DNA of 64,000 nt, from positions 40,424,001 to 40,488,000 of the forward strand of contig CM114271.1 in NCBI GenBank assembly GCA_050084515.1. Reading direction: 5' to 3'. Below, one piece after another: positions 3,431 through 36,487 of this stretch; the first letter of the stretch is position 1; each line of letters begins with the position of its first letter. Origin of the DNA: Blasia pusilla (taxonomy: Eukaryota). The notes beneath the pieces are model-generated. The model searched no databases, was not told the DNA's origin, and saw only the letters and a list, made by a program, of their open reading frames with translations. A program made the position numbers and the translations under genes.

Positions 3431-4018
3431 AGCACTCACACTATATGAGAGTGTCTCCCTCCTCTCATATGGTACCTTCTTCACTTGCTTCTCTCTCTAC
3501 ACCCATCCCAGTCTCGAGCACCGTCCAACTAGGGCGCGAGGTCTATGGTCGCAAGGCTACGACAGGCACTACTTAATGAGTACAGTCTCTCTCTCTCTCT
3601 TCAATCAAGGCTACCCATTCAGCAGCCTTGATTCATTGCCCAAAGCTCTTTGCCTTTGGTAAGTAATGTCTATTGGGGATCCCAATCAGGTAAAGTAAAT
3701 GGTGTGGTGAAGAGTTTCTTGATTGACACTTGAAAGCTCCACACAAACACGTTGTTTGGTTAGCACTCACACTATATGAGAGTGTCTCCCTCCTCTCATA
3801 TGGTACCTTTTTCACTTGCTCCTCTCTCTACACCCATCCCAATCTCAAGCACCGTCCAACCAAGGCGCGGGGTCTATGGTCGCAAGGCTACGACATGCAC
3901 TACTTAATGAGTACAGTCTCTCTCTTCAAGCACCGTCCAACCAGGGCACAAGGTCTATGGTCGCAAGGCTACAACAGGCACTATTTAATGAGTACAGTCT
4001 CGCTCTCTCTCTCTCTCT
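3431..4018 (+). mobile_element. Head-to-tail array of three 5'-truncated retroposon 3' ends with (CT)n tails
   Basis: Units ~3431-3600, ~3603-3925 and ~3928-4018 share the 3' sequence ...ggtcgcaaggctacgacaggcactacttaatgagtacagt(ct)n but differ in 5' extent. Confidence 0.7.
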
Positions 4019-5184: not shown

Positions 5185-8100
5185 TTAATAATAAGTGGAT
5201 ACTTCATGGATATACTGTAGCTGGGCCAGTACTTTCGCAGCTCTTTTTTTCTCGCTGTGACGACCATAAGTTGCCAAATCTACAAGAGGAATTCTCGACC
5301 TATTCCCGTATATCTCTTTCATCCCTTTAGCCACAAATATTCTTTCTAAGAAAATTACTGCCTTTTCTTTCAATTCAGGGGTACCTACTGTAAGTATGTC
5401 TAATATGGGACTAATTGCATCAGAACTGTGTAATAACTGTGCTCCAGCCTGCAGAAACTCATCCTCATTGACTAGAGTCTCGAGAGCTTCTACCGCAGCT
5501 ACGGCTGCTGCTCCTCGATCTTCATTGAGCAGGGCGACCAAGCCAGCAACAGCATCAGCCTCTACTATACAGAAAGTCGTCTTTACATCACACCTACCAC
5601 AATGCACTTTGCACTTTGGTAACCGACTCTGGCCATAGCACCACCATCATGTAATAGCTTGTACACTTAAAGATGGAGTGCTCAAAGAAAAGCTTTTGAG
5701 GGCTGTCGCCGCTCTTGCTTTTCGCTTGATTGTTCCAGAATATAACAATCTAACAAGAAGAGCATGAGCATCCAGATTGGCCAGGGACTGCTGCATCTTT
5801 ACATTGGATGGTTCTGTGAATTGGACCAATGCACCAACAGCAACTTCATTCACCTTTCCACTGCTTACTGTTGATGTCTGCAAGTTGACAAGAGCTGGTA
5901 TCGCTTGTGCTTCCTTCAGGGCTACAGTGATAGCTGGATTATGCGGTGACAGGGACCCCAATATTCCAGCTGCTGCCACCTGCACATCCTCTTGCGTGCT
6001 ACTATTGAGAATGTGCAAAAGAATATGGAATTTTTGTTGGTTCTGCATGTGCTGTGCAATCTCCTCTGAACCACTATCTCCTGAAAGATGGTGGAGTATT
6101 TGAATGACAGAATCTAAGTAGTTCACGGTCCGATCCCTCAACAAGAGGCAATAGCAATGTTATTCCTTGCAAGCTCCTCATTTTTCCTCTGATTTGTTTT
6201 GCCTCAGGGTCGCGAACTAAACCCAACAATACATGCAAAAGATGTCTTGAATGATAAGATGGCTTGCATAATTCTCCTGAACAGCAAGAAGATTTTCTAC
6301 AGTCTGTCCTTCGTCTAGAGGAACACCATCACCATCTACGAAGAATGTCATCCCGTCATTTGCAGCTACGTGGTCTAAGATGGCAGCTGCACTCTCCGTC
6401 AAACTGGCAGGATACTGTCCTGAGAACAAATGGCGTAAAACAACGGGAATTCCTCCTGCCTGAGCTACGTGACTCTTGATCAGTCGGTTCGAACACAGGT
6501 TTTGCAGAGCGCTCAGTGCTGTAGACTTTATTTCAATTTTGTCCGAATCCATCATCCTGACTAGAGGGACTATAGCTCCGAGATTTGCCAATGTTTCCTC
6601 GCTTTCATGTGTTAGCTTCATAGTGGCAAGTGCTTTGACCATAGCCAACTTCGACGATTCATCATTACCTGAAAAAAATTCGATGCCCAAGTACGTCAAA
6701 CTACAAGAATGTCCATTGAGAGCTTCTAGAAAAGTTTATGTGCGGCTCAATCAACCAAAGACATACCATCACAACCTCATGGTTCGATCTTGAAGCGTCT
6801 AGTACATGAGCATCACAAAACTTTCGTTCTTCAAGTGTCGTTACCATTAAGTCCCAGCTACCTTACAGAGAAAGGCTGGTCCTGTCAGATCCTTGCATAT
6901 GCAATAAGAGGAAGAGGATGCAGTTACGAATGGGGAAAACCTAAACCCACCTTCGCAAAGACAGGCAATAAGTGGTGTTAACCAATTGGCTGCGGCCATC
7001 TGTACGACATTATCATTCTCGCTCGAGAGCTTGTGCAGAGTCAATTTTGCAAGCTGTGAAGCCCCAGCATCCTTGCCCTTGAGTAAAGTTACGAGTAAGA
7101 ATATTGCAGTACGTTCTCGCCCAATTCTACCGCTCATGGCGGCATTTCCCTCCAGTAACTCCGACAATAATGCGGCAGCTGAACTGGCTACGCTAGTTTC
7201 TCGCCCCAGGCAACGAACAATTTGGTCGAGTCCACCAGCGTCTGCTACTCTTTCCTGAGAATCAAAGCGGAAAATCAGATTTCTGGACTGATAGACAAAA
7301 CGAAAATTACACCCCTAACCATTCATACTAACCAGTGCAGACAGCCACGGAGTCTTCAGCTCATCCAACGATCGGTGCAGCTAAGGTCACTGGTTGTGAA
7401 GCCAACCGATCAAGCTAGAATATATGCAGGATTGTGTATCCATACTTTGTTTGCCGTGTTGTTTTCCACAAGAGCGTGCAAGGCGGACAAGCCTGCTCGC
7501 TTCACATCTCGGCTTGAAGACTTGAGAGCATTGACCACATCGACCACGAGGCCCTCCTCTGCGATCCAATCCTTGTTGGATTTGCTCTTCCGACATAGAT
7601 CGGATAGAGATTCAAGGGCAGCTTTGATCTTACTTTCATCTCGAGACTGAAGCATCGCCTTCGATTTCTGTATACCTATGCAATAGTTTCGTTCCTGCCA
7701 TTCCTCAATTGACTGCCTGACGGGGATGTTTGACCTGAGAGTCCTATCCTGAAGCTCCTGGTGAGTGATAGGGTCAGTGGTGTTCCCGTTGGCGAACCAC
7801 TCGGTGATGGCAGAACGTTCGAAGCAGGACCCTGTCACAAGACTCACAGGATCAACCATCACATCCTGCTTCAGAGGACATATGAACGACTTCAGCGGAG
7901 GAATCAGCTCGGTAGAGTTCATGGCGTTTAGCATGCTGTCCCCTCGGCTAATAAAGGTACCATTTGAGAATCGTGGAAGAAAGGCAGAGTCTCCGCGAGA
8001 TAGGAGCGTAATGACCTGCTCCATGAATGATTCTTCCTCGCGCTCTTTCCTCAGTGCAGCTTCCTCCTTTTCTTTTTTGAAGCTTGCCAGCTCTCTGCTA

Positions 8101-8678
8101 ATTTCCGACGCATTCACTGGAATGCCCATGACTCTGGCAATCTCTAGTAGAAGGTCATTTGCAAAACCTTGATCGATCCTGTGTTCCCGTAGACCTTGCT
8201 CTAGCTTATTAATCACGACCAGCTTCGATTCTGATGCATGGAACTCGGCATTGATCATCTGATCTTTCAACCTGCTGACGCTAATGCTAATATCCACTGC
8301 TACTTCGGCGCTTGCGAGAGCCAAAAGTTGGAGTGACTTCCCCACATTACGTGTGATGCTTTGCGCTTCTCTAACAATGGAACGACAATTTACAAGTAAG
8401 TACATTTTTGGCTTGTTGGTGCAGTTGTCAATCAAAGCCCGGGCTTTCTTCAGATCCTCTTGAAGAGACTCTAGCGCCACTCTAACCGCTGGAGATTCCT
8501 TCAATTCGCGCTGCCTCAGGTCTACAAGCAACGGTCGTATGTCTTGTAGGAAGGTCGACAGCGTCCGGAAACTCTCCTTCTCTATCAGAACATCCTGAGC
8601 GGCGAGAGCTGTCTCCAGCACTTCAGTAGTCAACAAGGCTATTACAGTACCAATTGGGATCAGTTCGACGATAGTCAT
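5185..8678 (-). pseudogene. Plant U-box/armadillo-repeat E3 ubiquitin ligase, PUB43/44 (SAUL1)-like; 3 coding exons (8678-7446, 7254-6951, 6668-5185); frame disrupted
   Basis: U-box (PPLKSFICPLKQDVMVDPVSLVTGSCFERSAITEWF...DPITHQEL...LRSNIPVRQSIEEW), ARM repeats, C-terminal CxVHxGxC...TFC motif and end AAKVLAQL..IHEVSTYY. GT-AG introns 7445-7255 and 6950-6669. Compensating frameshifts near 6247 and 6118, and an in-frame TGA at 5647-5649. Confidence 0.88.
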
Positions 8679-9682
8679 CTTGACTCCACCTGCACAAAGT
8701 GCAAGGAACGATATTCCGAACAATCACCAACGCCTCGCGGCATATAGTCACAGAGCTGAGGTGACACAATCTGGATAACAGTGCGACCTTGCGACTCCCT
8801 TACATCTTCGGCGGCTGAGGGATCGAAGCAGTCTCGACTCCAAACTCAGCCCCACCCTGGGAATTTGCAAGTTGCCATCATCCGATTATAGAAAGAAATT
8901 GGTCACAAGCGTCTCAATCCGTTCCCTCCGCCTCCAAGTGTGGAACTAAGTACGAAGGGCTCACGGGGGAAAATACAATTAAACGTCTCCTAGCGGGATG
9001 GAAGAGACTTCGATCCACGGATCATCCGAAAATTTCTTCTCCAGTCTCTGGACTCGGTGGCACATGCATCCAAGCGAGCGGACGGAAGTTGTCCGCTAAG
9101 ACCACTACAATCGGACCGACACATTTGAAAGCCAACACCCTCCGCTCCGACTGCCCCATAACAACCAGAACTCGAAGATACGCCAGATCGCCCTCTCCTG
9201 CTCCCCGCGGCCTGTCGGTCTGCCAGTGAGCGCCATGGAGACTCTTCCAATCCGCCTGTCTCTCATCGGCATTCATGCCAGTCCGTCCGCCATGCCCCTT
9301 CCTCCTTCCTTCCTTCCTCGCTGTCATGCCATCGCCTTCTCGTTCCTGCCTCTCGCGCCTGCCTTTCTCTCTCTCTCACCTCCGTCTGCCCCTCGCTGCA
9401 TGAGGATGCGCTGCTGGTGTCAATTTGACCCGCGTGCGTCCGCAGGCGATGGTCCTGCCCGTCAATGACCCTACCCTACACTACGCTTGAGCTAAGGTTG
9501 GCATGCGCTAACATACGGGCACACTGCACACGGATACGCCAAGTGATCGACCAAACAACATTGTGAGTTGACGATCTGTGATCTCCACGTACGTGTGCGA
9601 TCAACTTTTGCAGTTCTCACGAGAGGACTAGTTAATTCTTTTTGCCCACATGTGAACGGCCTCTCTGCGGAGTTGGGCCACA

Positions 9683-10720
9683 GTGGCACCCCTCCTTTGC
9701 TCCCGCTTTTTGGTTAGAGATAGACCCCTCCTTCTACACTACGTCTCCCAGGTCGAGGATGGCTCTTTCCCATTTCAGTCTTCACTCACAGCTTGTAGAG
9801 ATTCCTTTCGAGTTGAGGCCAGAGCCGTTCTCCCCACTTTCTCCTCCTTAGTTACCTCCGGTCAGTCTGGGCTCCAATCTTCCTTGATGGAAGCCCACTT
9901 TGAGGCAGTTTTTAGAGGCACTATGTCTGACGGGAATATCCCCATGGAGGTTAGGGCCCGTATTCGCTCTTGCTCCGGAAAGGGGGCAGGCTCATGGGTA
10001 GTGGCGCGCCCCCTTCTCCAAGCTTTCCGTATCGCACCACTTACCTATACCACAGCGATGCGGTTCCGCTTGGGCCTCCCCCAACCATCGGTGGTTGGTT
10101 CGACACACTGCGAGTGTCGCCGGAGCCTGGATCCACTTGGTGTGCATTTGGCACGCTGTCGATTGGGGTGAGAGGATAGCCACTCACGATGCAAAGGCGG
10201 GATATCATGTTCATTATTGCTCGGGAGAGTGGCTTCCATGTGCAGAGAGAGAGGCACTACTCCATGCGGGATTCCCTCATTCGTGCCGATCTCTACATGA
10301 CACGTGAGGTTGAGGTGGTTGTGGCGGACGTGGTAGTCACAGATCCTACGCGGGAGGCAGTTGCGAGCCCAAGTGGTGGCCCAAGGGCGAATGCTACAAG
10401 GAGCGGCGGCGGCGGCGGCGGCGGCGAAGAAGACACATATCTCTGATCGACTACACAAGGGACACATCTTCATCCCCTCGGCCATAGAGATGTATGGGGC
10501 TATGGGGGAGAGGTTCGACTTCGTTTCTTACGGACTGCGCCCATCATCTCCACTCGAGAAATGGGTTGTCTTAACTCTGCGATTCAGACAGGCGGCGGGT
10601 CTCCATAGCGTTGCAGCGTGCCCAGGCTAATGGGATTTTGCGGCGGGCTCAGCCGTGGGAGACGCCGGCGCTAGAGGCCCACTTAGTAGTAGTCATAGTT
10701 CTCTTGTTGTTGCTGATATT
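9683..10720 (+). mobile_element. 3' remnant of a non-LTR retrotransposon with restriction-like endonuclease (CRE/R2-group type)
   Basis: AGSW..ARP...RFRLG, CCHC knuckle CECRRSLDPLGVHLARC, then THDA, RADL...VVADVVV (PD..D-like) and FIPSAIEMYGAMG, spread across frameshifted ORFs. Confidence 0.75.
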
Positions 10721-11759
10721 GTCTCTGCTGTTGGTGAGTTTCGTGTCGTTAGGGGGGGAATGCCCCTTCTTCCTTTTCTGGTCCTGTTGTGGCCTTCAGG
10801 TTTTGACTCTTTGAGTCCCCTCTTTTGTACTTCCGATGGGTTTTCCATCACTCGTTTCTATCAAAGTGCATCTTTGTTGACCAGATCTCTACGGAGTGGG
10901 AAATCTGCGAAGCTGTGGCGTTCGTCTTTCTGGGAGGAACTCGGGAAACGCAATCCCCGGCGGAAAGCTTCGACGATCGACTCCATCGCAGAAAGAAACA
11001 AAGAAACAAAGAAGAAACGGTGGCGCGAGTCTCCTCTCGAAACTTCGAAAGCGCTACCGTCGCTACCTCACCTCACATCACATCACATCACTGCAGTTTC
11101 CCAAGTGCGCTTTCCCGACGAGATAGAGAATCTTCCGGATGCGACCTCCGACTGTGCGGGTTTCCAGATCCCCCCTCACCGGTTTCGAAATCGGCGCTGG
11201 AAAACTGTACAGCAGATCCGGGGTTACGAGTATTGCTAGCCGGTTAAATTTGAGAATTCCCGATTGATTAAAAAGCCTACGAAAACCGGCTGGTATTCGA
11301 GCAGGTACTTTGTATTTCGTATCTCAAAACCGGGTTAAAATCCGGAATTACCGTTTCCGATTGGACATTCCCGGCGATGGACCGCGTCCCGCGAAAAAAC
11401 TTCCCGAACCCTGCTGTACAGAGGATATTAAGAAACAGTAATGTCTCCGCTTGTGGTGACCTGTTAACTCTACGGAGTAACCCCGACTTGTCATATGTTG
11501 GATAATAATTATTACTGATGGAATTCTAGCACCAAAGACCGGACCAGCACCTCCATAAAGCTCCCAGTCATTCATTACTTTCCACGGAGAAGCTTCCCCT
11601 GTTTCAGAGGAAGCATCGCAGTACACTTGCAGTATAATGAATGCGCTCTTGTCCTAAAATGCCACGACCGGGGAGTTATTCCCCGGTAACCGGCACTTTC
11701 CCGGTCGCATCAACGTAAAAACTCTCCAAGTTTTTCTAATCCCATCATTGGGGGTATTG

Positions 11760-16694: not shown

Positions 16695-16831
16695 TGTCGT
16701 GCGCATACATATCGCTACACAACATACATCGCTGGTCACATCTACACCACACAACACCGATCTTCCCCACACACGGGTCGATCCACACATGTATAAAAAA
16801 TCAACTCATACATATACATGGAGATCACACA
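16695..16831 (-). repeat. B2 terminal repeat (137 bp, TG...CA)
   Basis: Nearly identical to 17317-17453. Confidence 0.92.
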
Positions 16832-16832
16832 A

Positions 16833-17314
16833 CAAAAAATAAAGAGTATTAAAAACGGCACACCCGGCGTAAAACTCCACTCCTCAATCTACATCGGCAT
16901 ATCGAGCCTCATCCACCTTGTGCTATCAAGGAATCCGGACGCTAGCACCCTAGTCTTAGCTCACACACATACAAGGGAGGTGCTCCAACGGCCCAACATG
17001 AGAAAGATAGCTTAGGAAAGCCATCTTCCTCTCTTATATAGGGTTGGGAAGAGCCAAAAGGCTCTTTCCCTAAAAATAGCCCTCCCCTTGGTAACCTACA
17101 CGCACAGGTTACCAGGGGCGGGTGACCTGGTCAACAAGTCATCCGGATGTAAAAGAGCTCAACATGAAAGCTGTCAGAAACGATGTTCCTGACACAATGG
17201 ACCTATCCTCAACCTCATCCGACACCGTGGGAAAAAGTTACACTCAAGATAGTCCGCTAGCTCCTACGCCCTATCCACGATAGATCTCGGCCTATCGGCT
17301 ACTTAGATGTGATA
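16833..17314 (-). repeat. A2 repeat (3' LTR-like segment, ~480 bp, TATA at 17034-17040)
   Basis: 16834-17038 matches 25858-26061, and 17252-17314 matches 36807-36870. Confidence 0.9.
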
Positions 17315-17316
17315 AT

Positions 17317-17464
17317 TGTCGTGCGCATACATATCGCTACCCAACATACATCGCTGGTCACATCTACACCACACAACACCGATCTTCCCCACACACGGGT
17401 CAATCCACACATGTACAAAAAATCAACTCATACATATACATGGAGATCACACAATCACCCCCCT
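17317..17464 (-). repeat. PPT (17455-17464, AGGGGGGTGA) followed by B1 repeat (17317-17453)
   Basis: A purine tract immediately precedes TGTGTGATC. The same arrangement occurs at 36873-37002 and, decayed, at ~46221-46337. Confidence 0.85.
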
Positions 17465-17531: not shown

Positions 17532-20500
17532 CTATACACATCTCGGACACATCCATCGTCCCGTGGGAACCACATCAAGAGGGGGGGTCAGACATGACAT
17601 ATGCCACCCTCGAGAACAACCATCACATACCAACATGGTGGCTGCATCCCTCGCAGATCCGCACAACATACACCTCAAGCATGCAGGTACCACCGCCAAG
17701 CTCGGATCCATTGTCCCATCTACGTTCGGAAGATGACATGGTGCACAATTGCGCATATGATCCTTCCAAACCATACCATCCCATCCCTCCAACATGAGGA
17801 CTCCGGTCGATAATACCTCGCACACACGTAGGATCGTGCGCCCTACAGTGACATCTAGCGTCGTGGGTGCCGCCTGCTGTAAATACACGTAATCTCCAGG
17901 ATGAAACCTCCTAATCCCTGGACGATAACCTCCTCCATGAATGGTCGCGTACCTCAATGTATCTCTATGCTGGGCAATAGCTAAGTTCTCAAAGGCCATA
18001 GGCATAACTCTACGAAAAACTTCTGCCCTCTGAGAACATGCTTGTACCCACACATCTGGATCATCAAGATCTAACACCTCCGCCATGACACGTCGAATCG
18101 CTGCAGGTAAATCTGGCTCTCTCCCAAAGAGCAAAAAGTATGGTGAAAATAACGCCAATCATGCCTGCCGACTAAAGCGATAACCCATAGCCAACCATGG
18201 CAACTGTAGGTCCCACTCCCTCAACTGTCCCCGCTGCAAGCCATCCTTGCGCAATCCTCTCTTCACCATCTGTACCACTCTCTCCGCCAACCCATCCGCC
18301 TCACGAAGATCTCTGGACGTGGTGCGGTGATCTATCGGCACCTGATCAAACAAGGCCTGAAACTCTCCCCTGAACTCGGTACCCTGGTCGGTCAACACCT
18401 CCGCCGGTGCACCAAAGTGACTAAGCACACGATCTAGAAACGCATAAGCTGTTCCCTCGCTTGCCTTGTCTGGTAGTGCCACCAACTCTATCCACTTGAA
18501 GAAATGCTCCACCATGACCAACACGTACCTATGATGACGCACTGTCAATGGCAAAGGTCCCGCAAAGTCTAAACTCCACCGATAACCTAAACCCATAATC
18601 GGCAAAGGATGTAACTGCGGATTGGGAGCATTGAAGGGTGCTTGCACTCTGTCACATACCATACATCTGGCCAAAAACTTCCGTACCCCAGTATGCATGC
18701 CGCGCCACCAATACTGAACCTGGAGTAAGCTGTAAGTACGCTTTACTCCGAAATGTCCCAACTCCTCATGGGCATGTCGCACTACACGTGCTCGCTGGGA
18801 AGGATGAGGTACCACTCGTATCCTACCATCTCCCCATACCCACAAAATGTGAGTCCCCTCCCACTTGAACCTCTTGGCTCTCTGTAGGATCCGATCTCGC
18901 TCCCTAGCACTCACTGTACTCGCAATGACGCCAGTGGGCAAGAACTCCACAACCTCCACGTCGTCATGGATATCACGACTACCTGTCGCCTCCTCACTAA
19001 CCTCCGGATCCAAAGACTCATCATCCAACCCCACCACTGGAGTCATCACTTGTGGCTGACCTGCCATAGTCAACCAACAAAGATAGGCAAATGCATGCCA
19101 ACTGGGCACCATCTCCTCATCACTCTCTCCGTGCCATCGAGCTCCTGTGTCGTCTCTCTGACTCGGACATGGGTTACGACTCAACCCATCCGCATCCTGG
19201 TTCAGCCGACGTGGCCTATGAACCACCTCAAACTCATACTCCTTAAGTAATAGAGCCCACTTGGCAAGCTTTCCCGTAAGCTTGTCGGACTCCATCAACC
19301 ACCTCAACGGTTGATGATCAGTGATAAGTGTGAAAGGGTTGCTGAATAAATAGCACCTAAAATGTGCCACGGCCCACACTGCAACCAAGCACTCTCCCTC
19401 GTAGGAGTTGTACTTCGCCTCTGCAATGTTGTTTGATCGGCTCGCGTAAGCCACAACGAACTCCCTCTCCTCGTCATCCCTTTGAGTAAGCACTGCCCCT
19501 AGACCCAACATGCTCCAATCCATATGTAACTGGAATGGGCGACCCCTAACCGGTCTCTGTAAAATGGGTGAGGACGTCAACCTGTCCTTGAGCTCCTGAA
19601 ATGCTCGCTCCTGATCATCTCCCCACAACCAAACCTGATCAAGTCTCGTCAACAAGGTCAAAGACTTTGCGATCGCACTAAAACCCTTGACATACCGTCG
19701 ATAGAAGTTTGCCAGTTCGAGAAATGCTCGGACTCGACTCACATCTGTAGGGCGTGGAATCTGCGTAATAGCCTCTACCTTTGTCTGTTGAACGCCTAAC
19801 CCACTCGGGTATATGGTGTGTCCCAAGTACTCAATCTGCTCCTGAAAGAATCTGCACTTGTTTGGATGTAACTTCAGGCCATGTAACTGCAATCGCCGAA
19901 ACACCTCCTCCAAGTGTCGCTCATGCTCCTCAACCATGGAAGTGAAGATAAGAATATCATCTATGTCACATCGTACAAAATCCAAGCAAGCTAGAATCCT
20001 ATCCATCACTCTCTGAAACTGTGCAGGAGCGTTCTTCAACCCAAATGGTAATAACCGCCACTGATACAAGAAATCTCTCCCAAACCGATCTATCCCCCAA
20101 AATGTTGTCTTCTCCCTGTCCTCCAACCTGATAGGAAGCTGATGATAGCCAGCACCGAGATCTAAAGTACTGAAGATCTTTGCATGCCCTACCGCATCAA
20201 AGATCTCCTCAGGAGTAGGCATGGCCACCGTCGACCTCGTCATTTCGGTTGATAGGACGGTAATCTCCACACATCCGCCTGTCCGTCCAATTGCCATACA
20301 TATCCTTCTTCGCCGACATGACTGTGACAGATGCATACTCCCCATGTGATAACTCCATAAGTCTTGCCTCCAACAAGTCCTGACTCCTGCTCTGAATCAA
20401 GGCTCGCTCCATATCAGAATACCTGTAGGGTCGACGAAAGATTGGCGTATCACTAGCCAACTCAATCCGTATCCTGGGACCCTCAAGCGTACCCAAGTCT

Positions 20501-20924: not shown

Positions 20925-21865
20925 CCATGTGAGACAATTGAGGTCCATCGCTGCCCCAACACCTGTCTCCGGAATGCCTCAGTCATCCCTCGCACCGCTG
21001 TAGTTCTGGTAGTGAACCCCATGGCGCGCTCGCGCTCATCTGCTGTAGGCTCCTCCAATGCTCCGGTCACCTCATCCCAAATCATGCCTGGCCCTCCCTC
21101 ACGAAAGGCATGGGATACTCGGAAGCTCACCAACGTAGGTAAGGCTGCCCTCAACTCCCCCACTCTATTGGCCATGGCCAACGGTGGTCTATCATCCCGT
21201 GTCACCACCTGAGATCGACGCCCTGAGCCCAAAATAGCATCTACTGTGAGATGTGGTGCTCTCTGGACTCCACCGTATGCTCAACTCAATACCTCTGATG
21301 GTATCAGGTTCGTCCACCACAATCGTGGACGATGGGCACATGACCCAACTCTTGCTGCATCTAACAACACAGCAGGTCCCAACCAAGACCTCACCTAATG
21401 TACACTCGTCATCACACGTGCATGAGTGCCTCCCAACAACGGCACGTTCTCCAAAATATACGTTGGAGAACATATCTGACTCTCTTGCAAGTGTCGTACT
21501 ACTCGCAGCATCTCCTAAAACATCCATGACCTCGGATCCTGCAATCCAAATCCTCGGCCAGCTGATGAATGACCCTGACATGGCCATCCAGCAATCACCA
21601 AATGAATGGTGCCAACTCTATCCAGATCCTGCGCCCCCACCAAAGAGATGTCGGCGGGTAGCGTATGCTGATATCCCCGTACTGCAGATACCGGCAACAA
21701 CTCAGGAAACCTCTGGACCAATCTCGCCACGTGACGTAATGATACTCACCGCGCGGTCTCATCTCTCTCCACAAAAAAGTACTGATGCACCCGTATGCCT
21801 GCCTGCAATAGTGCAGCCAATCCGGTGCTAATCCCTCCGAAGAGATCTAACACCCTAACACCCTC
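20925..21865 (-). pseudogene. C5 cytosine DNA methyltransferase domain (DNMT3-like) embedded between protease and RT
   Basis: In one frame with several nonsense codons: motif I VLDLFGG (21833-21853), II FVE, IV AGWPCQG (~21572-21592), VI YILENV (~21443-21460), VIII AHRPRLWWTN (~21308-21338), IX ERERAMGF (21014-21037), X RRQVLGQ(A)MD (~20945-20970, across a 1-bp frameshift). Confidence 0.93.
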
Positions 21866-22242: not shown

Positions 22243-24732
22243 TCATCCTGGCGGATAAGAAACGGTCTCCTCCCAGAAGTCAAGGATGAATCCTAGGGGA
22301 TATAACACTGTACTCCCCACCAACACATCGTACGACTCATCTGGTGTTGTAATCGCACGTGTGCGCACCATAACACTATCCGTCGCATGCTCTGGCTGGA
22401 CTCTGACAACAATCTCCTGTCGAGTCATATATTGAGTGGGTGATACGCCCCCAATCGAGGTCTGTATGTGGAAGGGACAAGGCTCAATGTCGGCCTTCCA
22501 TAACCCCAACGCTAAACACGCCGCCTTCCCTAACATCAAGGGTTGCGCTCCCGAATCAAGTAGGACGCGCTGCGGGTGGTATATTGTCCCCGTCGGACTA
22601 ACCAAGCGAAATACTCCAGCTCGGTTATCGAGTAACACTACTCCATGAGTCATTGTTGCTCGCTCTATGGCCGGTCGAGCTGGCATATCTACCAACTTCG
22701 CCGCCGCCGCATGCCATGACTCTGTGGGGAACGTCCCAAGCACCGGCTCTGAAGGCAAGTCCACCACCTCCTCAACTACCTCTGAACAAGAAGCAGTCAT
22801 CTCTCCACGCTCACACAATATGGCGGCCAACCGGAACACCTCAGCTGGTCCAACTCCCAACGTCGCCAACTCTATGGCGGAAAATAGTGGAGTCTGACTC
22901 ACTCTGGTGGCCACCTCCAACACTATGGTCAACACTGACTCCACTCAAGCCGGCATAGGAGTTGTCACTCCAACTCCTTGTGACGTCGACGTAGGTGCCT
23001 AAACTGTAGGCACCGGTGGTAGTCGAGGCACCATCGATGGTGTGTGTAGTGCCTCCGACAATGTGAACGACTGTGGAACCCAAGCCTGCCGCCCATCGGT
23101 CCCCTCTGGTGGGTCAATCTCAACTCCACCTCTCGATGGCTCGGTGCCTCTCGTAGCACCCCGAGTCACCACTGCAGCTGCCTCAACCTGGGCTGCACTA
23201 CACCTAAATCCCATACTGGCGAGATCCTCACCCGGATCAAGGTAAGAGGTAGAAGTTGGAGTCACACTAGCTACTCGCAGCTCTGTGCCTTCCCTAAACT
23301 GCATCATCGTCATGACAGCAATCCTCTGCTCCAACTGATCGATGCGTGAGAGAAGTGCCAGCTGTGGTGCTCCTGCTCCATCTCCTCTGGCTGGTGGTGG
23401 TCCTCTACCACCACGTCCAAGAAGAACTCCCCGACCTCCTCCAGGACGACCGCCCCCACGCCCTCGGCCTACCTCTGGACGTGCCCCTCGGCGAAGGTCA
23501 AAACATCTATCCCTAGTGTGACCATATTTGTGGCAATGGTCATAGTGGTACTGTGGTGGGGCCATCCTCTGTGGCTCCTGAGCAATCGGAGGCGCTAGTG
23601 GTCCTCTCCCATGTTGTGGGCAGTCTCTCTGCCTATGGGCCCCTCCACACGTCCAACAAGACCACATCGGTCCCTGCTGGGCAACATATGTAGGTGCGGG
23701 TCGTTGCCTCATAGGCTCACAGTACCCGCCCTGCTCTCTAGGCACACTGGCCCGCTCCTCTGGTACTGGTGCTCGCTGTGGCACCTGTGGGGTCACCGTC
23801 GCTCGTGGACCCGTCGACTCTCGAGAAAATCCAGCGGTCACTACCTGCTCCTCACTCATGTTGAGCTCAATACGCTCAGACAACTCAAAGACCACCTTCA
23901 ATGTGGGCTTTGCTGTGTGAATCAGCACCGCATCTCGGACTCTCCTCCGTAGTTCTCGGTCCAGAACCCCGTACCAATACCGGACTAACTGCGCCTCAGT
24001 CACTCCAAACGTAGCAATGATCAGCCTCCTCATGCGTGTGAATGCCTCTCTCAGACTCTCACACGATCGTCGCTGAAAATCTTGTAGACTCTTCAGCTTG
24101 TCAGTGCGTACGCCCTGGTAGCTCTTCCCCAACTTTCGGAAGAACTCCATTGTGGGGCTGAAGCTGGGTGGCCCTCTACCACCAGAGGTCTTTGCCACAT
24201 CGCCTGTCTCACTGCCCTCCTCTCCATCTAGTCTCTCTCCTCTCACAATCCCATCATATGCCTTGCGACCACTAGTGGACACATACCCTGGAGCCCAATA
24301 CATCCTCCAAGCATCAATCTCTACTGAATATAGTGATCGAAACTCCATGTAGTCATCCATCGGAGGACCCTCCAAGTGCTGGAATAACCCCTTCCATGCC
24401 ATGAAAGGGTTGAACCGTGTCGGGGTCCGTATCTCCTGGAAGTCGCACCATGTGTCAAACTTCTGGATAAAATCATCTAAGTCGATGGTGCCCACTGCAC
24501 CCGAGAAATGACGCATGCCCCGCTGGCCCATGTTGTCCATCTCCTGCCAAGTTCTATTGTCTCTGTCTGTGATCTCTACACCAGACCCAGTGTCCAGTGA
24601 TGACGATCCAGCCACGGATGGATGTCGAGGTAGCTCCTCACTGGTAACCCCTCGGTATCTCACTCCACTCCGTGTCACACCACTACTACTGCTCGCACTA
24701 CCCCGTTCTTCCAAACCTTGGAAGAACGCCAT
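22243..24732 (-). pseudogene. gag: gag (two zinc-knuckle-like motifs) and aspartic protease of element 1
   Basis: 577-aa ORF with CWTCGGAHRQRDC and a second degenerate knuckle, plus an RGG-rich region. It continues in the same frame past a stop at ~23000 into VLLDSGAQP...DVLVG protease. Confidence 0.9.
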
Positions 24733-25843
24733 GATGACAAACCCTATCTCACCCGCTCAAGCACTCAGACTCACCAAGAGTCTCCCACACGCCTCACTAG
24801 CTCACCTATGCTAACATCAATCCCATGATGACATACCCGGCCTCACGCACGCTCAACACTCGGGCTCACCATGAGCCTCCCAACTGACTCACCTAACCTA
24901 GCGACACTCTCTTGGGTCATACACGCGACCCCTACTTGGAAACCGCCCTATATCCAACAACATGCTACACATGAAAAGAATCTACAATCGTCACCATCAC
25001 TGCACCCACCTAGCACCAGCTACTACCCAATACCTAGCACTCTCAATCACACACGACAAGTGCGGGAAAAGGGACTCGAATGGGTAACCTGATCACGCCC
25101 TCCAACCTGCTACACCGTCAACATGCACTCCTCCACATGATATGACAATCTCCGCAACACAACACTCTCCTCGACCAACACGTCAATCCTCCCGTCAACA
25201 GATGCGGACAACCCGTCAGCATCATGCACACTGCCCCTCCATCGTCAACTCTCACAACGCCTTGTCGTGCCCAAAAACATCATGTCGCGCAAACCTCTCT
25301 ATCTATCCCCACGCGCGGCATGTAACGTGACTCACCCTGGTCAACTCCCAATCATGTCCGGCAAATCTCAACTCACGTTCGCCGGATTGACCTCGTCCGT
25401 CCTATCAACCACGGCCGCTCCAATCCTACCACGTTGGGGGGGCGGGGGGGGGGAGCCATCCGGCCCGTGGCCTCCCTGCGTGCCTACGGAAGGAGAGAGG
25501 AGAGAGGGGGGCGCGCGCTCCCATGCACGCCTCCCACCTCAAGGGGAGAGGGGGGCGCGCAATCGCCCCCCATCGCCAGTCCGCCGTCGCCCGTCAGCTC
25601 TCTTTTCTTCTCTCTCTCGACACCCTCACTCGTGTACACCCGACGCTCCACCACAACTACACTCGACTGCTGTTACGCGTCAATCCGTACTAGCAAAATC
25701 TGAGAAAAATGGCCAACGCTTCCGCCCACGGCCTTCCGAACAGAAAAATGAAAAACACCCACAACACACGCGTCTCCTGGGGCTCCCGACCAAGGCAACT
25801 CACTTGCCTACCCGCAAACAACGAATTCCCACCAACCCTCTGA

Positions 25844-25854
25844 CATCTTTCTCA
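25844..25854 (-). promoter_or_regulatory. Self-priming primer-binding site of element 1
   Basis: Sense TGAGAAAGATG directly after the LTR's CA is the exact complement of LTR positions 26022-26032, 25 nt downstream of the TATA (26057-26061). Confidence 0.85.
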
Positions 25855-26745
25855 TGTAAAAATAAAAAGTAGTAAAAACGGCACACCCGGCCTAAAACTC
25901 CACTCCTCAATCTACATCGGCATATCAAGCCTCATCCACCTTGTGCTATCAAGGAATCCGGACGCTAGCACCCTAGTCCTGGCTCACACACATACAAGGG
26001 AGGTGCTCCAACGGCCCAACATGAGAAAGATGGCTTAGGAAAACCATCTTCCTCTCTTATACTCGCGGGTCTCACTTCCACACAAATGCCCCATCACGTG
26101 CGAAAAAGTTAGGGGTTTTTTAATTGCGTCCCTCGGAAGACTTATTAAGTTTTGTGGAAGAACAATAGGGCATAATTTATTCCATCAAACTCTTATAAGA
26201 ACAATAGGGTATTTTTTATTAGTCTTCCTTCCATGGAAAATGTTAAGATAAGATAGGGTTTATACATGTCACATCTACATATATTAAATAATTTTTTTAC
26301 AAAAATTAGCTTCCCTAGCTAAAAAATCAAATTTATGGAAAAGCTTTAGAGGGAAGAAGGGAGTGCTTACTTTCAAGTTTCCCTCTCAATTTTAGTTGGG
26401 TTTGTTGGGTCTAGGGTTTTAGCCTTCGGAGACAAGCTTTGAGCGGCAAATTGAGCCGCAACTTGAAGCCCCTTCCGAGCAGAGTGCACAACTTTCTCAG
26501 GGAGTGGTGGTGCAGCGTGACTTGAGTGGCGCAGCAGGAGATCGTGGCGTAGCGTGACTCGAGTGGTGCAGCAGGAGAGCGAAAGTGATCGGGAGTGGCC
26601 CGGCAGTTGGTATGCTACTTTTTTTCTTGCTTTCTTCTATCATGCCTCTATTCTTTTGAGTGCTTTCCTTTCCTTCGTATCTGATTACACAGCGTAGTTG
26701 AGGGCGGAGGATGGTAAGCTTTATGGCTCTAGATCAGAGATGCAT

Positions 26746-29878: not shown

Positions 29879-30862
29879 AGAGAGAGGCTCCACGATGCAT
29901 TTAACGGGCCCGTCGAGCGAATTATCGGCCCCCACACGGTATCCGCATTCAAGGAAAAAGGAGTTCTTATACTTGATGAATTTGTATACAAAATGCCCAA
30001 CTTGGTCATGGTGAACTTTCTTCTCTCGTGCCCATATGTTCATGTCCGTGTCCATGCCGTGGGTGGCCGTTGAACTATTTGTATCCACATTTTCATTTCA
30101 CTTTACGATTGAAGGAAGCCAATCCGTCACGGACTAGGAGTTTCCCTTTCTTTGTCCGGCCCATGGCTGTACGCATTGAATTTTCTGGTTCTTTTGTGCA
30201 CTCAGCTGTGGGGGGATGAGGATTGTGTTGTTAGTCCCATCTCATATAAAGTCATTGGAGCTATAGGGGTTCCGCAACCTTTCACTTCAGGCTATCAGCA
30301 TCATGTCCCTTTTGTGAAGTAAGGGAAGACTTCTCGTCCACGTTGTACATCTAGAAATCCATGCCGCTTCTTGCAATTCTCTACTTTTCAGGTGGGATGA
30401 GAGTAGTACCCAATTGTTTCTTAGTGTGTACCTGCTCGCCAAAGTTGGTACCGTCCACTTGGAATCAATTTGTGTACCCGTTTCAGATACACTTTTCCAC
30501 GCCGGTCACAAGGGCACAGATTGATAATGTGGTCTTATGTAACTATCCAACCTGTCTTTGAGGTGTGTTCAACATGTGGGGATGTTGAGTTTATGTCTGT
30601 AGCCTATTTCTTCTCTCGAGCTAGCAGAAACAGTTATTCTATGGTTATTCTACATTGTGTGTTATCAGACCCTCATTTCAAAGCATTTGCAAAGTGAGCA
30701 TTGAACTACCCTAGGAAGGATTCTACTTCCTTTTCAGGCATAGTTTATTTTTTTGAGAGTTGGTATTTAGTTGAGTTCTAAGCAATTGACTTTTAAGTCT
30801 TTTAGTTTGTCTACAATTATGCATGCCTATATCTTCTATTTGGTTAAGTTATAACTTATTCC

Positions 30863-31552
30863 ATGTTTAAATGTCCAGTAGCCATAACGGCAAGGTACAA
30901 GGGGCAAGCCAAGAATAATCCACACTCTAGGAAGAAGATGAGCATGAGGTTGCCACAAATTCCCCTATTCTCAGATATTGAGTTGCGACAATGCAGTCCT
31001 CATTTGTGTGCTATTTGCGATTTGCATGGAGATCTAGTGATTTGTGATGGGCTTTGCCATCGACAATTTCACCATGTTCATAGAGTTGGCCAGACGGTGT
31101 CTCATTGCCCCGCTGTGGTCATTCCAAAGGACAAGGTGAACGACCCTTGGTATTGTCTAGAGTGTACCTCCGGGACATACAAATGTTTCAAGTGTGGTAG
31201 AATGGCTTCCATTCAAACTAATATGAGACAGTGCCCCCAACCTTTCTGTGTTTGTTTCTTCTGCCATGGATGCTTGCCACTTGATGTGCAATGTTGCCTT
31301 CTCCATACATGTGTGGCATGCAACATGCTGCATCGCAGTGAGCATCTAGCAAACGTCGTACAATGTTTGAGATGTCCGAAGACATGGCATTTGGTTTGCT
31401 TGGCAGCGAGCAAGGAGGAAGGTTTTGCACCTGGCATAGAATCTTGGCGTCATGTTGCACATAATGAGATCAGATGGATGATCTATTGCCCTGATCATCC
31501 AATTGTCCCCACACTAGGCACTGCAGATTATCAACATATCTCTTGGTTTTAA
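30863..31552 (+). CDS. EDM2/NSD-type tandem PHD-finger protein (229-aa open frame; true start uncertain)
   Basis: CAICDLHGDLVICDGLCHRQFH...WYCLEC...CFKC...C...LHTCVAC...CLRCPKTWHLVCL...W...IYCPDHPI..TLGT...H. The spacing resembles the plant EDM2 PHD region as I recall it. Confidence 0.75.
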   Translation: MFKCPVAITARYKGQAKNNPHSRKKMSMRLPQIPLFSDIELRQCSPHLCAICDLHGDLVICDGLCHRQFHHVHRVGQTVSHCPAVVIPKDKVNDPWYCLECTSGTYKCFKCGRMASIQTNMRQCPQPFCVCFFCHGCLPLDVQCCLLHTCVACNMLHRSEHLANVVQCLRCPKTWHLVCLAASKEEGFAPGIESWRHVAHNEIRWMIYCPDHPIVPTLGTADYQHISWF

Positions 31553-31904
31553 TTATTGAATACGATAGAGAAATTTTGTAGGTAAGCACAATGGGTCTAT
31601 AGTTTCATTACATATTTCAGGTGTAAGATTTTGCACAAATTACTTTGATGTTTTCAGGAGTTTTGTATCTTCAGACTCAAAACTATAACTCATGTTGAAT
31701 GGACATTTTGGTTAGGTTGTAATGAATTAAATGGATTAAGTCTTGAAGTTGGAATGAGGATAGTTATTTGATGTTATGTATGGCTATCAATTGTTGTAGA
31801 AGCATAACAAACTTTGATTTGTGACCTCTTTTGTTTGTTGTTGTGGTACATGACAGGTTGAACTACATATATGACAGTTTGAATGCCTTTGACACCTTGT
31901 ACAA

Positions 31905-34900
31905 ATGGCAAACCCTAGTTCCAACTCAATGAGACTAGTAGAAAAGACCGCGGAAGGGAAGGATGATGTACCAATTTGTGTGTTGTCCTTCAAAGAAGGA
32001 CAAACACTGGCTGACTTCCGCACTCGATGTGCTAGGGCAGTTGACTTTGAATTTGATTTTTGGGATGATAGGCTACCAGGTAGAGTTAGACATCCTATTG
32101 AGAACCTCATTGAGATTAGTGAACTTGAAGGGAGTGTTTTTGTGATTGCACAACAAGCCTCTGGATGTATTGGGGGGGTTGCAATTGTGTCCTCGCATTC
32201 ATCTGCTGCTACTGTGTCTATCATAGAGGACACAAATGTTGGGTCTCAATCACATACAGAAGCCACAACCCAAGAGCAAGTAGTCAATACATTGCCTGTC
32301 ACAGATTCATTTGAGTCAGTGCTTATGTCTGAGGTTGCAGCAAAGAGTTGGAATGAAGTGTGGGGCAAGCTTAAAGATTGGGTAAAGCGACAAGGATATG
32401 ATGAGCATAAGTGGAGAGTGCGAACGTGGGATGAGGGGAAAGATGTCCGAGGGCACCTAGAGTGCTTAGAGTGTCGGGAGACTTATGGGAATGCAGCTAA
32501 TTCCCAAGTTTTGAAATCAATTGCAAATTGCTTCAGCAATTTCAAGACTAAACATCTCAACAACCCTAAGCACAAGGACAATTTTTGTAAGAGACGGGAT
32601 CTGCCTAGTACATTGATTTCTCCTAGTGACATTATACAACAACTTCAATGGGATCATGAACATCAGATCACCGTAGGTTTAGGAATAGTTGAGAAAATGA
32701 ATGTAGAGGTTGGGGGTGAGACACTAGTGTTCTCTATGACGCCATCTGTTGCTGATACGCAGTTTGCACACAATTCATACCTGTTCAAGGTACGATGTAT
32801 AATCTGTGGCAAGTTGCACACAGACATGTGTCCAAGAAAGGCCAATTTGGAGCATAATCTACGACAAAACTTGGTTATTCGTGATCACTTGGATGCTCTT
32901 GATACTAGAGAGGTCACTGCCCAACTTGTCTTGAGGTCTGGGAAGAAGGGAAGACCAAAGAAGTCGGATCCTAGGGACTTATTTCCGTCTCAAAATTCCA
33001 TTACCAAATTCTTTAACCCTGATGCCTTCAAGGAAGGAAGCAGTTCAGGAAAAGGTGGGTTTGCTTCCTCCATTGATTTTGGACTAAGTTTGCTTTGTTG
33101 GGGCTTCTGGGAGTCAAACGTCCAATGGAGTGGAGAGTTGATGGATGTGAAGGCCATACTAGATGATCAGACAAGAGGAACTATTTAGGATTGTGAGCTT
33201 ACCACTTCAGCGCAAGTGTTCAACCAAAGTCGTAGGTCAATTGTATGTATACAAGGTTGTTTTAGGCACAAGCTTTGCTCTAGATTGTCAAGTAATGAGG
33301 GAGGGTTTGAGAACCTCACTTGTAGTCATTGTGACTCCATTAAGCGGGAGGATGATTTTCGTGGTCGGGTGCACAGGGAAGCGGAAGCTTTAGTGCATAG
33401 AGGAGGCATGACAACTCAAAGAGGGGTGGCCATGAAGTATTTGACCAAGACAGAGTTGAGGGAGCATGTGGGAAAATTGAACACTCAATTTAGGAGACAA
33501 CGTTGGATTTTGGCACAACAATCACAAAGAATTTGTGCCTTGAGTATTAGGCGAAAGAAGCTAGAAGACTTGTTAAGAGTAGCTTCAAATAGGAAAGATT
33601 TGAGACTATTTCTTAGGAACGTAGTAAATGGACATAGGGATGCGGCATTTGGTGGTAAGGAGGGGTTGTGGGATTTCCTGAAAGATGTGGCTAAGAATTT
33701 GCAGAGAGTGGCCAATGGTTATCGTTATAGTAAGAGAACCAAAGCTTTTTCCCAAGCCATGTTCCAATTTGGTGGCCGACAAGTTGCCCACTGCTTTCAA
33801 GAAAACTTGGGAGGGCCAGGTCTGAAGACCTTGAAACGTGACAGAGCAAAACTACCACCCTTTAGAGCTAGGCTACGAAAAGAGATATTTCAAGAGGTCT
33901 CCCGAGTACTATTTGCATAAAAAAAAACTACTTGGAATCGAGGGAGATGTGCCTGTAATGTTCGCTGAGGATGAAACAAGGATAAAAGAAAGGCCAAGGT
34001 GTGTTTGAATCTTTGGAGAAAGTTGGCCTTGATATATGTATGGGTATGCTCTAACATAATGATTATATTAATTTGCACATTTATATGTCATGTTTATTGT
34101 TTTCTATTAGGCTTATGTTCTAACTTGATATTTTTGTTGTGATAGATGGGAGGCTAAATATGACACGCTTATTGGTTTTTGTGGTCCCTCGGAAGAACAT
34201 ACATGCTCTTTTGGCTTGGAAGTACTTTTTGGGGAAGGTAATGAAAAGTATGATAAAATTGTGAGTACTTTTGAGAAATATGCGAAAGGTATGTATGCTA
34301 GAGTAGTAATTGTGAATCCTTTGCATGAGAAAATGCCAAAATTGGCGCTCTGTGCCACCGCAACTTGTAATCGATTCAAAGCAGATTGGGTGAGGGAACA
34401 TTGGGTGCAGCTGAAATCCATGTCGGATGAATATTGCAGAGCCAGTGTTGGTCCTTTATTGGGGCATGCAAGTGATGGTGATGCTCGTCGTAGGAAATTA
34501 ATGATGGAAGATTATACTGGTATGAATGGTTCTTTTCCAAGGTATCAAGTAGGGTGGGAAGGGTGGCAGTATTCTGTGTCCATTCTTCCAAATGGAGACT
34601 TGTATGGCTTTGGAGACCAAGATCCACCCCACAATGGGAAAAAGGCTATTAACCCATTGGACCGATGTGCTGCCATGCTAGTGCTTGGTAACCAACATGC
34701 ATCGTTGTCCTATGTGACGTCAATTTATAACCATTATAAAATTGAGGAGCATCGCTTGAACTGGGATGATGTGAATAGGACCCACAGACAGAACTGGGCT
34801 TGCCCACAACGGATAGCATCTAGGAGAGTCCAAGCCTGCCTACACCACATGTTTGAGCGGCAAGATGTTCGACATGATAGAAGTTTTGGGACAAAGTTGT

Positions 34901-36487
34901 ACCTTGAGATTTGTGCAGATTACATCGACATTTTCTTCTCTATGAAGCATGACTTGAGAACTCGTATAGTATTGGCATCTAAGGTATCTTGGTTTCTTCG
35001 TTTGTGGAGGCTATGGTTGAGGTACGGTGACCATTCTGTGACAGGGAATACATGATGTGTCACAGAAAAAAATATGATCTCTATTCAAGCTTTCTATGAT
35101 ATCAACATGTCTTGCCATTTCATTGTACTCTTAGTTTGTGTATTTCGAGACAAGTTTCCATATCTTCAAGTTCCATTTCACTTGCTAGGATCTGATTGTT
35201 GTGAGATTTTTTTCAGCAAGGTAGGTGGCATGAGTGGTCATGAAAGAAACTATGACTTTGGATCTCTACTAGATAGTACAGTAGGAGTGAATCGACTGGC
35301 TGGCCTAGAGTATGGACCAGAAGGATTAAAGATACGTTGTTCACATCATAAGCAAGATCATATTTGGGCAAAATGCATCCTCTTGGTGAAGGAGATCGGG
35401 TTCGAATCTATTTGATTATTCATTGGTTGGGACTAATGAGTTGGTTGTTGATGCTCTTAAAGAAGGGTTGGATGCAACAAAAGAGCTTTTGAGGTTGTTG
35501 AACATGTCTCCAAGGAGTTCCTTGCCAATTGCAAAGAGAAGGTGGTGGATGCATCCATGGGATGTGGAGGCCGAGACATGGCCTCATTCAGCTTCAATAA
35601 GGGAAGTAGTGTCATGTGATGATGTTGAAGAACATGAAGATAACCGATCCACAATAGTGTCTCCAATATATGAGCAACCAACTGGGGAGTCTTTAGAGTT
35701 TGAGGACCCTGAGGAAGATTTGAACCATATTGATTCTTGGGTTGTAGAAGAAAGTTGTGATATCAATGTACCTTTCATAATAGATAACGAAGAGATAGAT
35801 ATTGACATTGATCCGAAATCCATTGAAATGGAAGTATTAGGACATGAAGTAAGACATATATTTGCATTTGTTCAAGCAGAACTGACTAATGTGGCAATTC
35901 CCCATGCAATAGTGCCTACTGTAACTTATGAGGGCAAGATTATCTATAAATCCACCCTTGTAAGTCAATTGTCTTGCAATCCTTTCATGTCAAAGGATAG
36001 ACTAACTCGAATAGCCCAAAAGACTTATTACACTACTGGTAAGGGAAAGGAACGTGATCCTAATTGCCCAACTTGTTTGGTTGATGTTGGTAGTGATATT
36101 GCAGTTTTGTTTGAATCTACAGCAAATGTTGGCCCTTCCACAAGATCAACAAAGTCAAAGAAAAGGAAGGGAAATGAGACACAACTTGCAGTGGAGGCAG
36201 GAGTTGCAAAAAAAGAGTATTGGTTGGGGCGTATTGTGTTTATGATTCAAAAGAATGGTTCACATTGGTTAAGACGTCGTACGGCCTTGGACTTGTTAAA
36301 CACGCCTGTACCTCCTTCTGGACAAAAGGGAAGCATTTGTCGTATTATGTGTAATTGGTGCAAGTCTTTCGGCCATGGTAACACCAAAACCTTGTTCAGT
36401 TATGATGCAATAGATGTGCAATGGATTGATATTGAAATGGTGATCTCTAAATGTGAATTTGACAATGAAATCAGGGGTACAAGATAG
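31905..36487 (+). pseudogene. Large P-element-superfamily-like DDE transposase, one intron (33999-34145), several stops and frameshifts
   Basis: Coiled-coil, then YSKRTKAF..A....G..........LGGPGLKTL. First D in MFAEDET (~33958-33978), second D in HASDGD, DPPH..K (DxxH), and E in LGSDCCEIFFS. The spliced junction reads RIKERPR/WEAKYDTLIGFCG. Confidence 0.75.

Follow-up and report, generated by a model that had tools for sequence, protein, structure and literature searches.

In the textbook scheme, retroelements with long terminal repeats (LTRs) integrate the ends that reverse transcription has made, and forms with joined ends (2-LTR forms) count as dead ends. Tyrosine recombinase retroelements, such as the PAT-like, Ngaro and DIRS elements, are not known to make target-site duplications (TSDs) on integration. 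A DIRS-type repeat structure together with Gypsy domains has been described in a figure legend for KnitGypsy-Dnmt3 of Klebsormidium nitens (Fig. 4c in PMC5890265; de Mendoza et al., 2018). Here we describe a 64-kb stretch of the Blasia pusilla genome (contig CM114271.1, positions 40,424,001 to 40,488,000; hereafter the window) that contains several copies of one kind of Ty3/Gypsy retrotransposon, including two families. Positions 16695-17464 are the 3' terminus of one of these copies, element 1, a Ty3/Gypsy element of about 9.4 kb on the minus strand. Element 1 belongs to a streptophyte clade with copies that are bounded by split direct repeats in the order A-internal-B-A-B. We show that these integrated copies are a circular permutation of the complementary DNA (cDNA) that is predicted from the priming signals of the element.

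Termini and junctions of element 1 and its relatives

The layout of element 1 is read on the minus strand, in the element's own 5' to 3' orientation. The polypurine tract AGGGGGGTGA (17455-17464) stands directly before the inner copy of B (B1, 17317-17454), which by the rules of reverse transcription is the first part of U3 and ends in ...GCACGACA. It is followed by a 2-bp spacer (17315-17316), the NN of an internal CA-NN-TG junction that is decayed here to GACA-AT-TATC, and by the 3' copy of A (A2, 16835-17314). At the A|B joint (16833-16834) the U5 end abuts the U3 start with 1-2 extra nt, and the outer copy of B (B2, 16695-16832), likewise ending in ...GCACGACA, forms the right terminus of the integrated element. 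Inner and outer B are 97.8% identical over 139 nt, compared with about 87-89% to the B of a second copy of the same family. The 3' A contains a TATA box (17031-17040) and a stretch complementary to the primer-binding site (16996-17008), which is the putative start of R. From the 5' copy of A only the last 204 nt are left (25858-26061, minus strand, 96% identical to the 3' copy); it begins at the TATA box, with unrelated AT-rich DNA upstream. Directly behind it lies the predicted self-priming primer-binding site CATGAGAAAGATG (25845-25857, minus strand), pairing with A about 30 nt past the TATA box.

The same order is found on the plus strand in the second family, the pol of which has about 75% nucleotide identity to that of element 1's family. 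Here B (46234-46337), GC, A (46340-46707), AT and an outer B (46710-46803) follow each other, and the B sequences share 95.8% identity. The outer one is ~10 nt short at its end and borders on internal sequence of another copy. A further copy of this family has a clean 5' end at 50482, starting with TGTCATG and with no B ahead of A. The palindrome GACA-GC-TGTC is present at 36876-36867 and 46334-46343 and has decayed to GACA-AT-TATC at 17320-17311. A first-pass annotation of the window had described the B-A-B terminus with its 2-bp spacer at 16695-17464, the matching layout at 46234-46803, the 5' end of the second family lacking B and the palindrome at all three places; these descriptions are confirmed, the first of them in the minus-strand reading.

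The pol region of element 1 (17535-20396, minus strand) encodes reverse transcriptase, RNase H, an integrase with H2C2 and rve domains, and a PHD finger. The Pfam matches come in the order RVT_1, RT_RNaseH, Integrase_H2C2, rve, which is that of Ty3/Gypsy elements. A single in-frame stop at 18158/18159 interrupts pol and separates the open reading frame (ORF) from reverse transcriptase to the rve core (18159-20396, minus strand) from the C-terminal PHD finger (17535-18158, minus strand). Element 1 pol was aligned with 17 homologues, and in this 18-sequence alignment the integrase residues D610, D670 and E705 are conserved. Neither element 1 nor L023, an intact relative, has an ORF that matches a tyrosine recombinase domain (Phage_integrase, PF00589), in agreement with the annotation, which states that the catalytic D,D,E is present and that a tyrosine recombinase ORF is not visible.

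The named pol homologues come from liverworts, Klebsormidium and Closterium, and many of them carry a PHD domain; Klebsormidium retrotransposon proteins with reverse transcriptase, RNase H, integrase and PHD share 39-44% identity with the window pol. The alignment was used to fetch related metagenome loci, yielding 598 matched stretches, 515 of them confirmed, and all counts on relatives given here refer to the best 80 (40-69% amino-acid identity in pol). Their ends were typed by self-comparison and by comparison with seven complete elements. Twenty-four loci, equal to 20 distinct insertions, have a 5' end with flank. A stands alone at all 20 of these ends; neither B before A nor A-B-A was seen at any of them. 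For 3' ends with flank the sample is 42 loci or 35 distinct insertions, and the outer B is present in 19 of the 35, including one internally deleted copy and one in which the outer B is cut to its last 29 nt. One of the 35 (L062) has B-A and then unrelated DNA. No ordinary BA...BA copy was seen among the 80 related loci, so that the pair of identical LTRs by which Ty3/Gypsy elements are recognized is missing from this sample. Even groups at 50-53% identity (L049, L074) keep the same B and the same junction. Since 19 of the 35 distinct 3' ends among the relatives have this layout, the pattern is not due to chance. The A-internal-B-A-B layout is confirmed as a clade-wide property and is no accident of this locus.

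The boundaries of the inserted unit are given by TSDs. Among 16 loci with both ends, corresponding to 15 distinct insertions, an exact 4-bp TSD lies outside the TGTCA(T)G start and the ...C(G)ACA end in 11 loci, or 10 distinct insertions (AAGG, TTTA, CCAA, GGTC, TGAC, ATGT, CCAC, ATTA, TCAT and TGTT). Two more loci, L020 and L069, agree at three of the four positions, the TSD of L020 being read by eye because the script had mis-anchored this locus. As a control, left and right flanks from different loci were combined, and 3 of 240 pairs matched, two of the three being one insertion sampled twice. The integrated element starts with TGTCA, the start of A, and ends with CGACA, the end of the outer B, and the TSD is outside both. 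TG...CA ends with a 4-bp stagger are the signature of a DDE integrase. Thus, the inserted unit is A-internal-B-A-B or A-internal-B.

The two junctions within the terminus behave differently. The inner B|A junction reads ...CACGACA-NN-TGTCATG... in all groups. Its spacer measures exactly 2 nt in each of the 20 B-A-B loci and likewise in the three copies of the window, with letters that depend on the lineage (GC, GT, AC, AA or AT). Every B+A unit therefore contains the two integration ends abutted as CA-NN-TG. The first base of the outer B is the one with which the inner B begins behind the polypurine tract. Because this start is set by the polypurine tract and A ends where the primer-binding site would come next, the A|B joint is the end of U5 set against the start of U3. 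This joint differs between copies, whereas the B|A spacing does not. In the group of the window, three copies have an additional A at the joint and three an additional G, L008 has three letters, and L016 has a 21-nt insert that closes with the final 5 nt of the polypurine tract. The joint of the other group is mostly precise, with losses of 1 nt (L026) and 2 nt (L037) and a larger deletion (L043). The joint is also present in reads and contigs of the window's own species. There, a 1-nt deletion at 16834 makes up 28% (X1) and 55% (X2) of the summed contig word depth in two DNA runs, and in single contigs A and B are separated by 2, 8 or 19 other letters. Since the R repeat in A2 precedes the joint and the outer B, both should be missing from the RNA and be rebuilt in each cycle. 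In line with such remaking of outer B and joint, B copies within one element are more alike than B copies across elements.

Reverse transcription signals place the LTR elsewhere than the integration ends do. A G-run directly precedes the inner B in all 20 B-A-B relatives. In both window families A contains, about 30 nt beyond its TATA box, a stretch complementary to the first 12-14 nt past the 5' A, a match reached by at most 1 in 1000 shuffles of A (0 in 1000 for element 1). Of 9 elements, 7 have 10-16 nt immediately behind the 5' A that are complementary to A about 25-30 nt past the TATA box (at most 9 in 1000 shuffles as good). Elements that prime themselves in the manner of Tf1 use a primer-binding site that pairs with the beginning of their own transcript. 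Judged by these signals, A would hold part of U3, then a putative R and U5, and would end where U5 should end. Since the polypurine tract stands directly before the inner B and the 5' A is followed by the primer-binding site, the LTR amounts to B+A, and by ordinary reverse transcription rules the expected cDNA is BA-internal-BA. The ends of integration differ from these predicted cDNA ends; thus the integrated copy is a circular permutation of the BA-internal-BA cDNA.

What the annotation had predicted for further copies is largely borne out. A-internal-B-A-B is the rule; no BA...BA copy was found, and B stands in front at none of the 20 distinct 5' ends. TSDs flank TGTC... and ...GACA (10 of 15 distinct insertions against 3 of 240 control pairs), and a fixed B|A junction, with 2-nt spacing in 20 of 20 loci, is combined with a variable A|B joint. 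The additional A-internal-B form does occur, in 15 of 35 distinct 3' ends. A-B-A-internal-B copies, which the annotation had named as a further possibility, were not seen (0 of 20 distinct 5' ends).

Possible routes from cDNA to integrated copy

Our best model is that the cDNA ends are joined and that the integrase then cuts at the internal CA-NN-TG junction; we lean towards it, if only by a little. Ordinary reverse transcription would produce a BA-internal-BA cDNA, and its ends, the end of A and the start of B, would be joined in a 2-LTR circle or an equivalent end-to-end step. The DDE integrase would nick the palindromic CA-NN-TG of the LTR beside the primer-binding site, after CA on both strands. 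This cut would give a linear A-internal-B-A-B molecule with recessed CA-3'OH ends and 2-nt 5' overhangs, which would be a normal 3'-processed substrate, inserted with a 4-bp stagger. Outer B and A|B joint, absent from the RNA, would be remade in every cycle. As indirect evidence for a joined-end intermediate there are the A|B joint and the variation seen in it. A precedent for the cut exists in retroviruses, the integrases of which are reported to cleave the palindromic LTR-LTR junction of 2-LTR circles (PMC1905944, PMC1180852). In its wider form, the proposal is that in an entire Gypsy clade, ranging from charophyte algae to bryophytes, the integrase has come to recognize as its ends an internal CA-NN-TG palindrome templated in U3, so that end joining would be obligatory and part of the main pathway. 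This could in our judgement equally prove right or wrong.

Several points weigh against the joining model. Every copy in the window is incomplete and the TSD evidence comes from the relatives only, which are short-read metagenome contigs without an assigned host. The circle, the joining of the cDNA and the cleavage are read back from integrated copies alone. Three of the 16 two-ended loci (L032, L065, L034) have no TSD, and in 2 of 9 elements (L037, L071) there is no significant complementarity at the primer-binding site. Furthermore, the model requires an unexplained directional choice between two identical junctions. A 2-LTR circle has two such junctions, and a cut at the one next to the polypurine tract gives A-B-A-internal-B. 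We considered a 2-LTR circle that is cut at random at either junction and rejected it, because this form was absent from all 20 distinct 5' ends. In canonical reverse transcription the left LTR is duplex long before the right LTR. It is possible that directionality comes from this timing, with the LTR beside the primer-binding site becoming double-stranded long before the other one.

A further difficulty is that 15 of the 35 distinct 3' ends pass from a single B into flank, among them one truncated and one doubtful (L065) end, and that at least 4 single-B loci (L002, L030, L047, L056) have exact TSDs. Such copies may have been inserted as A-internal-B in the first place, may have lost sequence by B x B deletion or may reflect a collapse in assembly. 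Primary insertions could stem from a cut at both junctions of the linear cDNA, or from a 1-LTR circle cut at its sole junction. The same flanks and the same CCAA TSD are found in L047 (single B) and L071 (B-A-B), which come from different metagenomes; it follows that at least one single-B copy is secondary. The two differ either by a B x B deletion in one of the host lineages or through collapse in assembly.

The strongest alternative does without a circle, and we think it improbable while taking it seriously. The integrase would cut the junction in the left LTR of the linear BA-internal-BA cDNA once this is double-stranded and would hold both resulting ends. A-internal-B-A and the small B fragment would then go into the two sides of the target, and host end joining or a template switch of the reverse transcriptase would join the A end to the B start, either prior to insertion or following it. 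Such a course yields the same product, the same TSD and a variable joint, and, applying the timing of reverse transcription, it would offer a kinetic reason for the directionality seen in the 20 distinct 5' ends without A-B-A. However, two free blunt ends would have to bridge a break in the chromosome, or the reverse transcriptase would have to jump in an unusual way. The precise joints that dominate one group of relatives decide neither way.

A permutation that exists already at the RNA level is a distinctly poorer candidate. Here, the RNA would span A1 to B2, the internal B1-A2 would template the ends, as has been suggested for elements with split direct repeats, and a DDE integrase would insert the product. 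The layout does match that of PAT-like, Ngaro and DIRS-type elements as given in the legends of Fig. 1e and 4c of PMC5890265. However, a polypurine tract at the exact start of B and a self-priming site at the exact end of A fit the strong-stop transfers of LTR-type elements, and the outer B begins at the base set by the polypurine tract. In addition, the joint varies among copies of one family, which fits its remaking in each cycle.

For a tyrosine recombinase, encoded by the element or acting in trans, that would integrate a circular cDNA as in DIRS, PAT and Ngaro elements, the repeat layout alone speaks; set against it are the lack of a Phage_integrase match in the ORFs of element 1 and intact L023, a pol with H2C2 and rve domains including D,D,E, and TG...CA termini with 4-bp TSDs, and we regard this course as hardly credible. 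An ordinary BA...BA Gypsy element, with an outer B that arose by local duplication, opens a tandem or nested neighbour or comes from faulty assembly, could be suspected since the window is a nest of truncated copies of which none is complete, but this we can practically dismiss: the layout is common to two window families and 19 distinct relatives, the outer B stops exactly at ...CGACA and is followed by the TSD, B is absent from each of the 20 distinct 5' ends, and the A|B joint itself occurs in reads and contigs of the window's species.

Other copies, transcripts and neighbouring features of the window

The gene order of element 1 is gag, protease, a putative remnant of a DNA methyltransferase, reverse transcriptase, RNase H, DDE integrase and PHD finger. 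On the minus strand, a Gag-like ORF (22999-24756) is followed by a second ORF (22243-22944). The look-alikes of the gag region in an atlas of protein clusters are zf-CCHC and Retrotrans_gag clusters, which we take as a lead only. A second, 5'-truncated copy of this family occupies 36832-39602 (minus strand). It consists of pol/PHD (37116-39602), the polypurine tract, B (36873-36993), a GC spacer and the first 39 nt of A (36832-36870), after which it is cut off. From element 0, gag fragments are present at 1249-85 and the 3' end lies beyond the window.

The plus-strand copy of the second family is a 3' part (45106-46803) with the integrase end and PHD (45106-46055), then the polypurine tract and the terminus given above. 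The copy with the clean 5' end is a 5' part on the minus strand (46818-50482). It contains A (50115-50482), a predicted primer-binding site (50103-50114), a Gag-like ORF (47651-48559) and a second ORF (46818-47372). At 46803-46818 these plus- and minus-strand copies of the same family meet tail to tail, an arrangement that fits an insertion of one copy into another with a subsequent deletion.

Raw RNA data of the window's species yielded 909 and 943 reads at 90% likeness or more. Most have the first mate on the plus strand, which in most stranded libraries indicates minus-strand RNA, the sense strand of the element. The strongest loose ends among these reads, at 16695 and 16731, stem from a related, more strongly expressed family. 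Its reads match the 37 nt of the B end at 16695-16731 and diverge on both sides, and the letters that they have before 16695 are ...GTGACA-AC, the inner junction of that family.

Next to a truncated copy, long ORFs of 234, 431, 243, 308 and 365 aa lie on the plus strand at 30848-36487. A Pfam match was obtained for the first alone and is weak and PHD-like, and the 431-aa ORF (31893-33188) had no usable match in the atlas look-up. This run of ORFs may represent a further mobile element of unclassified type. Just left of the truncated plus-strand Gypsy copy lies a fragment of a Copia-type reverse transcriptase (44065-44694, minus strand; RVT_2, E 3.5e-55), which is probably a nested insertion. 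The sole clearly non-transposon gene that we noticed is a host-like ORF with U-box and MCAfunc domains (7410-8723, minus strand). Finally, 3431-4012 contains 164-nt direct repeats (3431-3594 and 3762-3925) with 95% identity, together with an 87-nt unit in three copies, ending in CT-rich runs.

Comparison with known systems

The window elements are of the same kind as KnitGypsy-Dnmt3, which has been noticed in print once. This assignment is based on the methyltransferase in relatives, its putative remnant in the window copy and the Klebsormidium homologues. In element 1, a weak match to a C5 DNA methyltransferase (DNMT), probably a degraded remnant, is located in the interval between protease and reverse transcriptase (21515-21745, minus strand; PF00145, 19.8 bits, below the Pfam cut-off of 22). 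The relative L023 has a DNMT between protease and reverse transcriptase (8351-10894; PF00145, 37.8 bits), and Marchantia homologues of the window pol carry PF00145 as well. As far as the main text and legends of PMC5890265 describe it, KnitGypsy-Dnmt3 has in common with our elements the Gypsy domains and the A-coding-B-A-B layout, and with relatives such as L023 a C5 DNA methyltransferase in pol. It differs in that the host is here a land plant (liverwort-type) and the putative DNMT of the window copy is degraded. The main-paper passages on KnitGypsy-Dnmt3 contain no analysis of TSD, polypurine tract, primer-binding site or junction and propose no mechanism. The first-pass annotation had supposed the arrangement to be undescribed for Gypsy elements. 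This holds for the mechanism, as judged from these passages; it does not hold for the DIRS-like layout, which the legend of Fig. 4c states. Beyond this one-sentence legend, the termini of such Gypsy elements are not treated in the literature searched, supplements being outside its scope, and the name KnitGypsy was found in PMC5890265 alone. TSD, polypurine-tract, primer-binding-site and junction evidence, and the mechanistic question that follows, were likewise not found in that literature.

In this clade, the ends of integration differ from the ends of reverse transcription, and normal TSDs show that a DDE integrase carried out the insertion. If the joining model is true, the clade would be a natural case in which end joining is required for retrotransposition, and its integrase would be able to use an internal palindromic junction, and to do so directionally. 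There is also a practical side, as LTR finders that expect two identical LTRs will mis-annotate the clade in bryophyte and charophyte genomes.

With canonical Ty3/Gypsy elements, including Tf1/sushi, the elements described here share the order of reverse transcriptase, RNase H and DDE integrase, TG...CA termini, a short TSD, of 4-6 bp in canonical elements and of 4 bp here, a polypurine tract and a predicted self-priming site. The latter, judged from complementarity past the TATA box in 7 of 9 elements, would be of the Tf1/sushi type. They differ from canonical elements by having no identical LTR pair, the 5' end being without B and the 3' end having an extra B, and by integration ends that are placed 113-200 bp inside the LTR defined by reverse transcription. 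As an identical LTR pair is lacking and a DDE integrase and TSDs are present, they follow neither the canonical Gypsy nor the DIRS order fully.

Circle junctions of the IS3/IS911 type likewise have abutted ends. The 2-LTR circles of the retroviruses PFV and HIV-1 (PMC1180852, PMC1905944) are comparable in having an abutted ...CA-NN-TG... palindrome that a DDE enzyme could nick. In these viruses the junction is ligated and belongs to a side path, whereas in our elements the junction to be cut is templated in U3, the ligated A|B joint would stay uncut and the pathway would be obligatory. TOC1 of Chlamydomonas has been called a non-autonomous DIRS element (PMC9940879). PAT-like, Ngaro and DIRS elements have the split direct repeats A1...B1-A2-B2 and the internal copy of joined termini in common with the clade; they use a tyrosine recombinase, while the elements described here have a DDE integrase, TG...CA termini and 4-bp TSDs. 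If the joining model is correct, the split-direct-repeat layout, so far tied to tyrosine recombinase elements, would have evolved independently with a DDE enzyme, and the clade would represent the DDE-integrase counterpart of the DIRS/PAT strategy.

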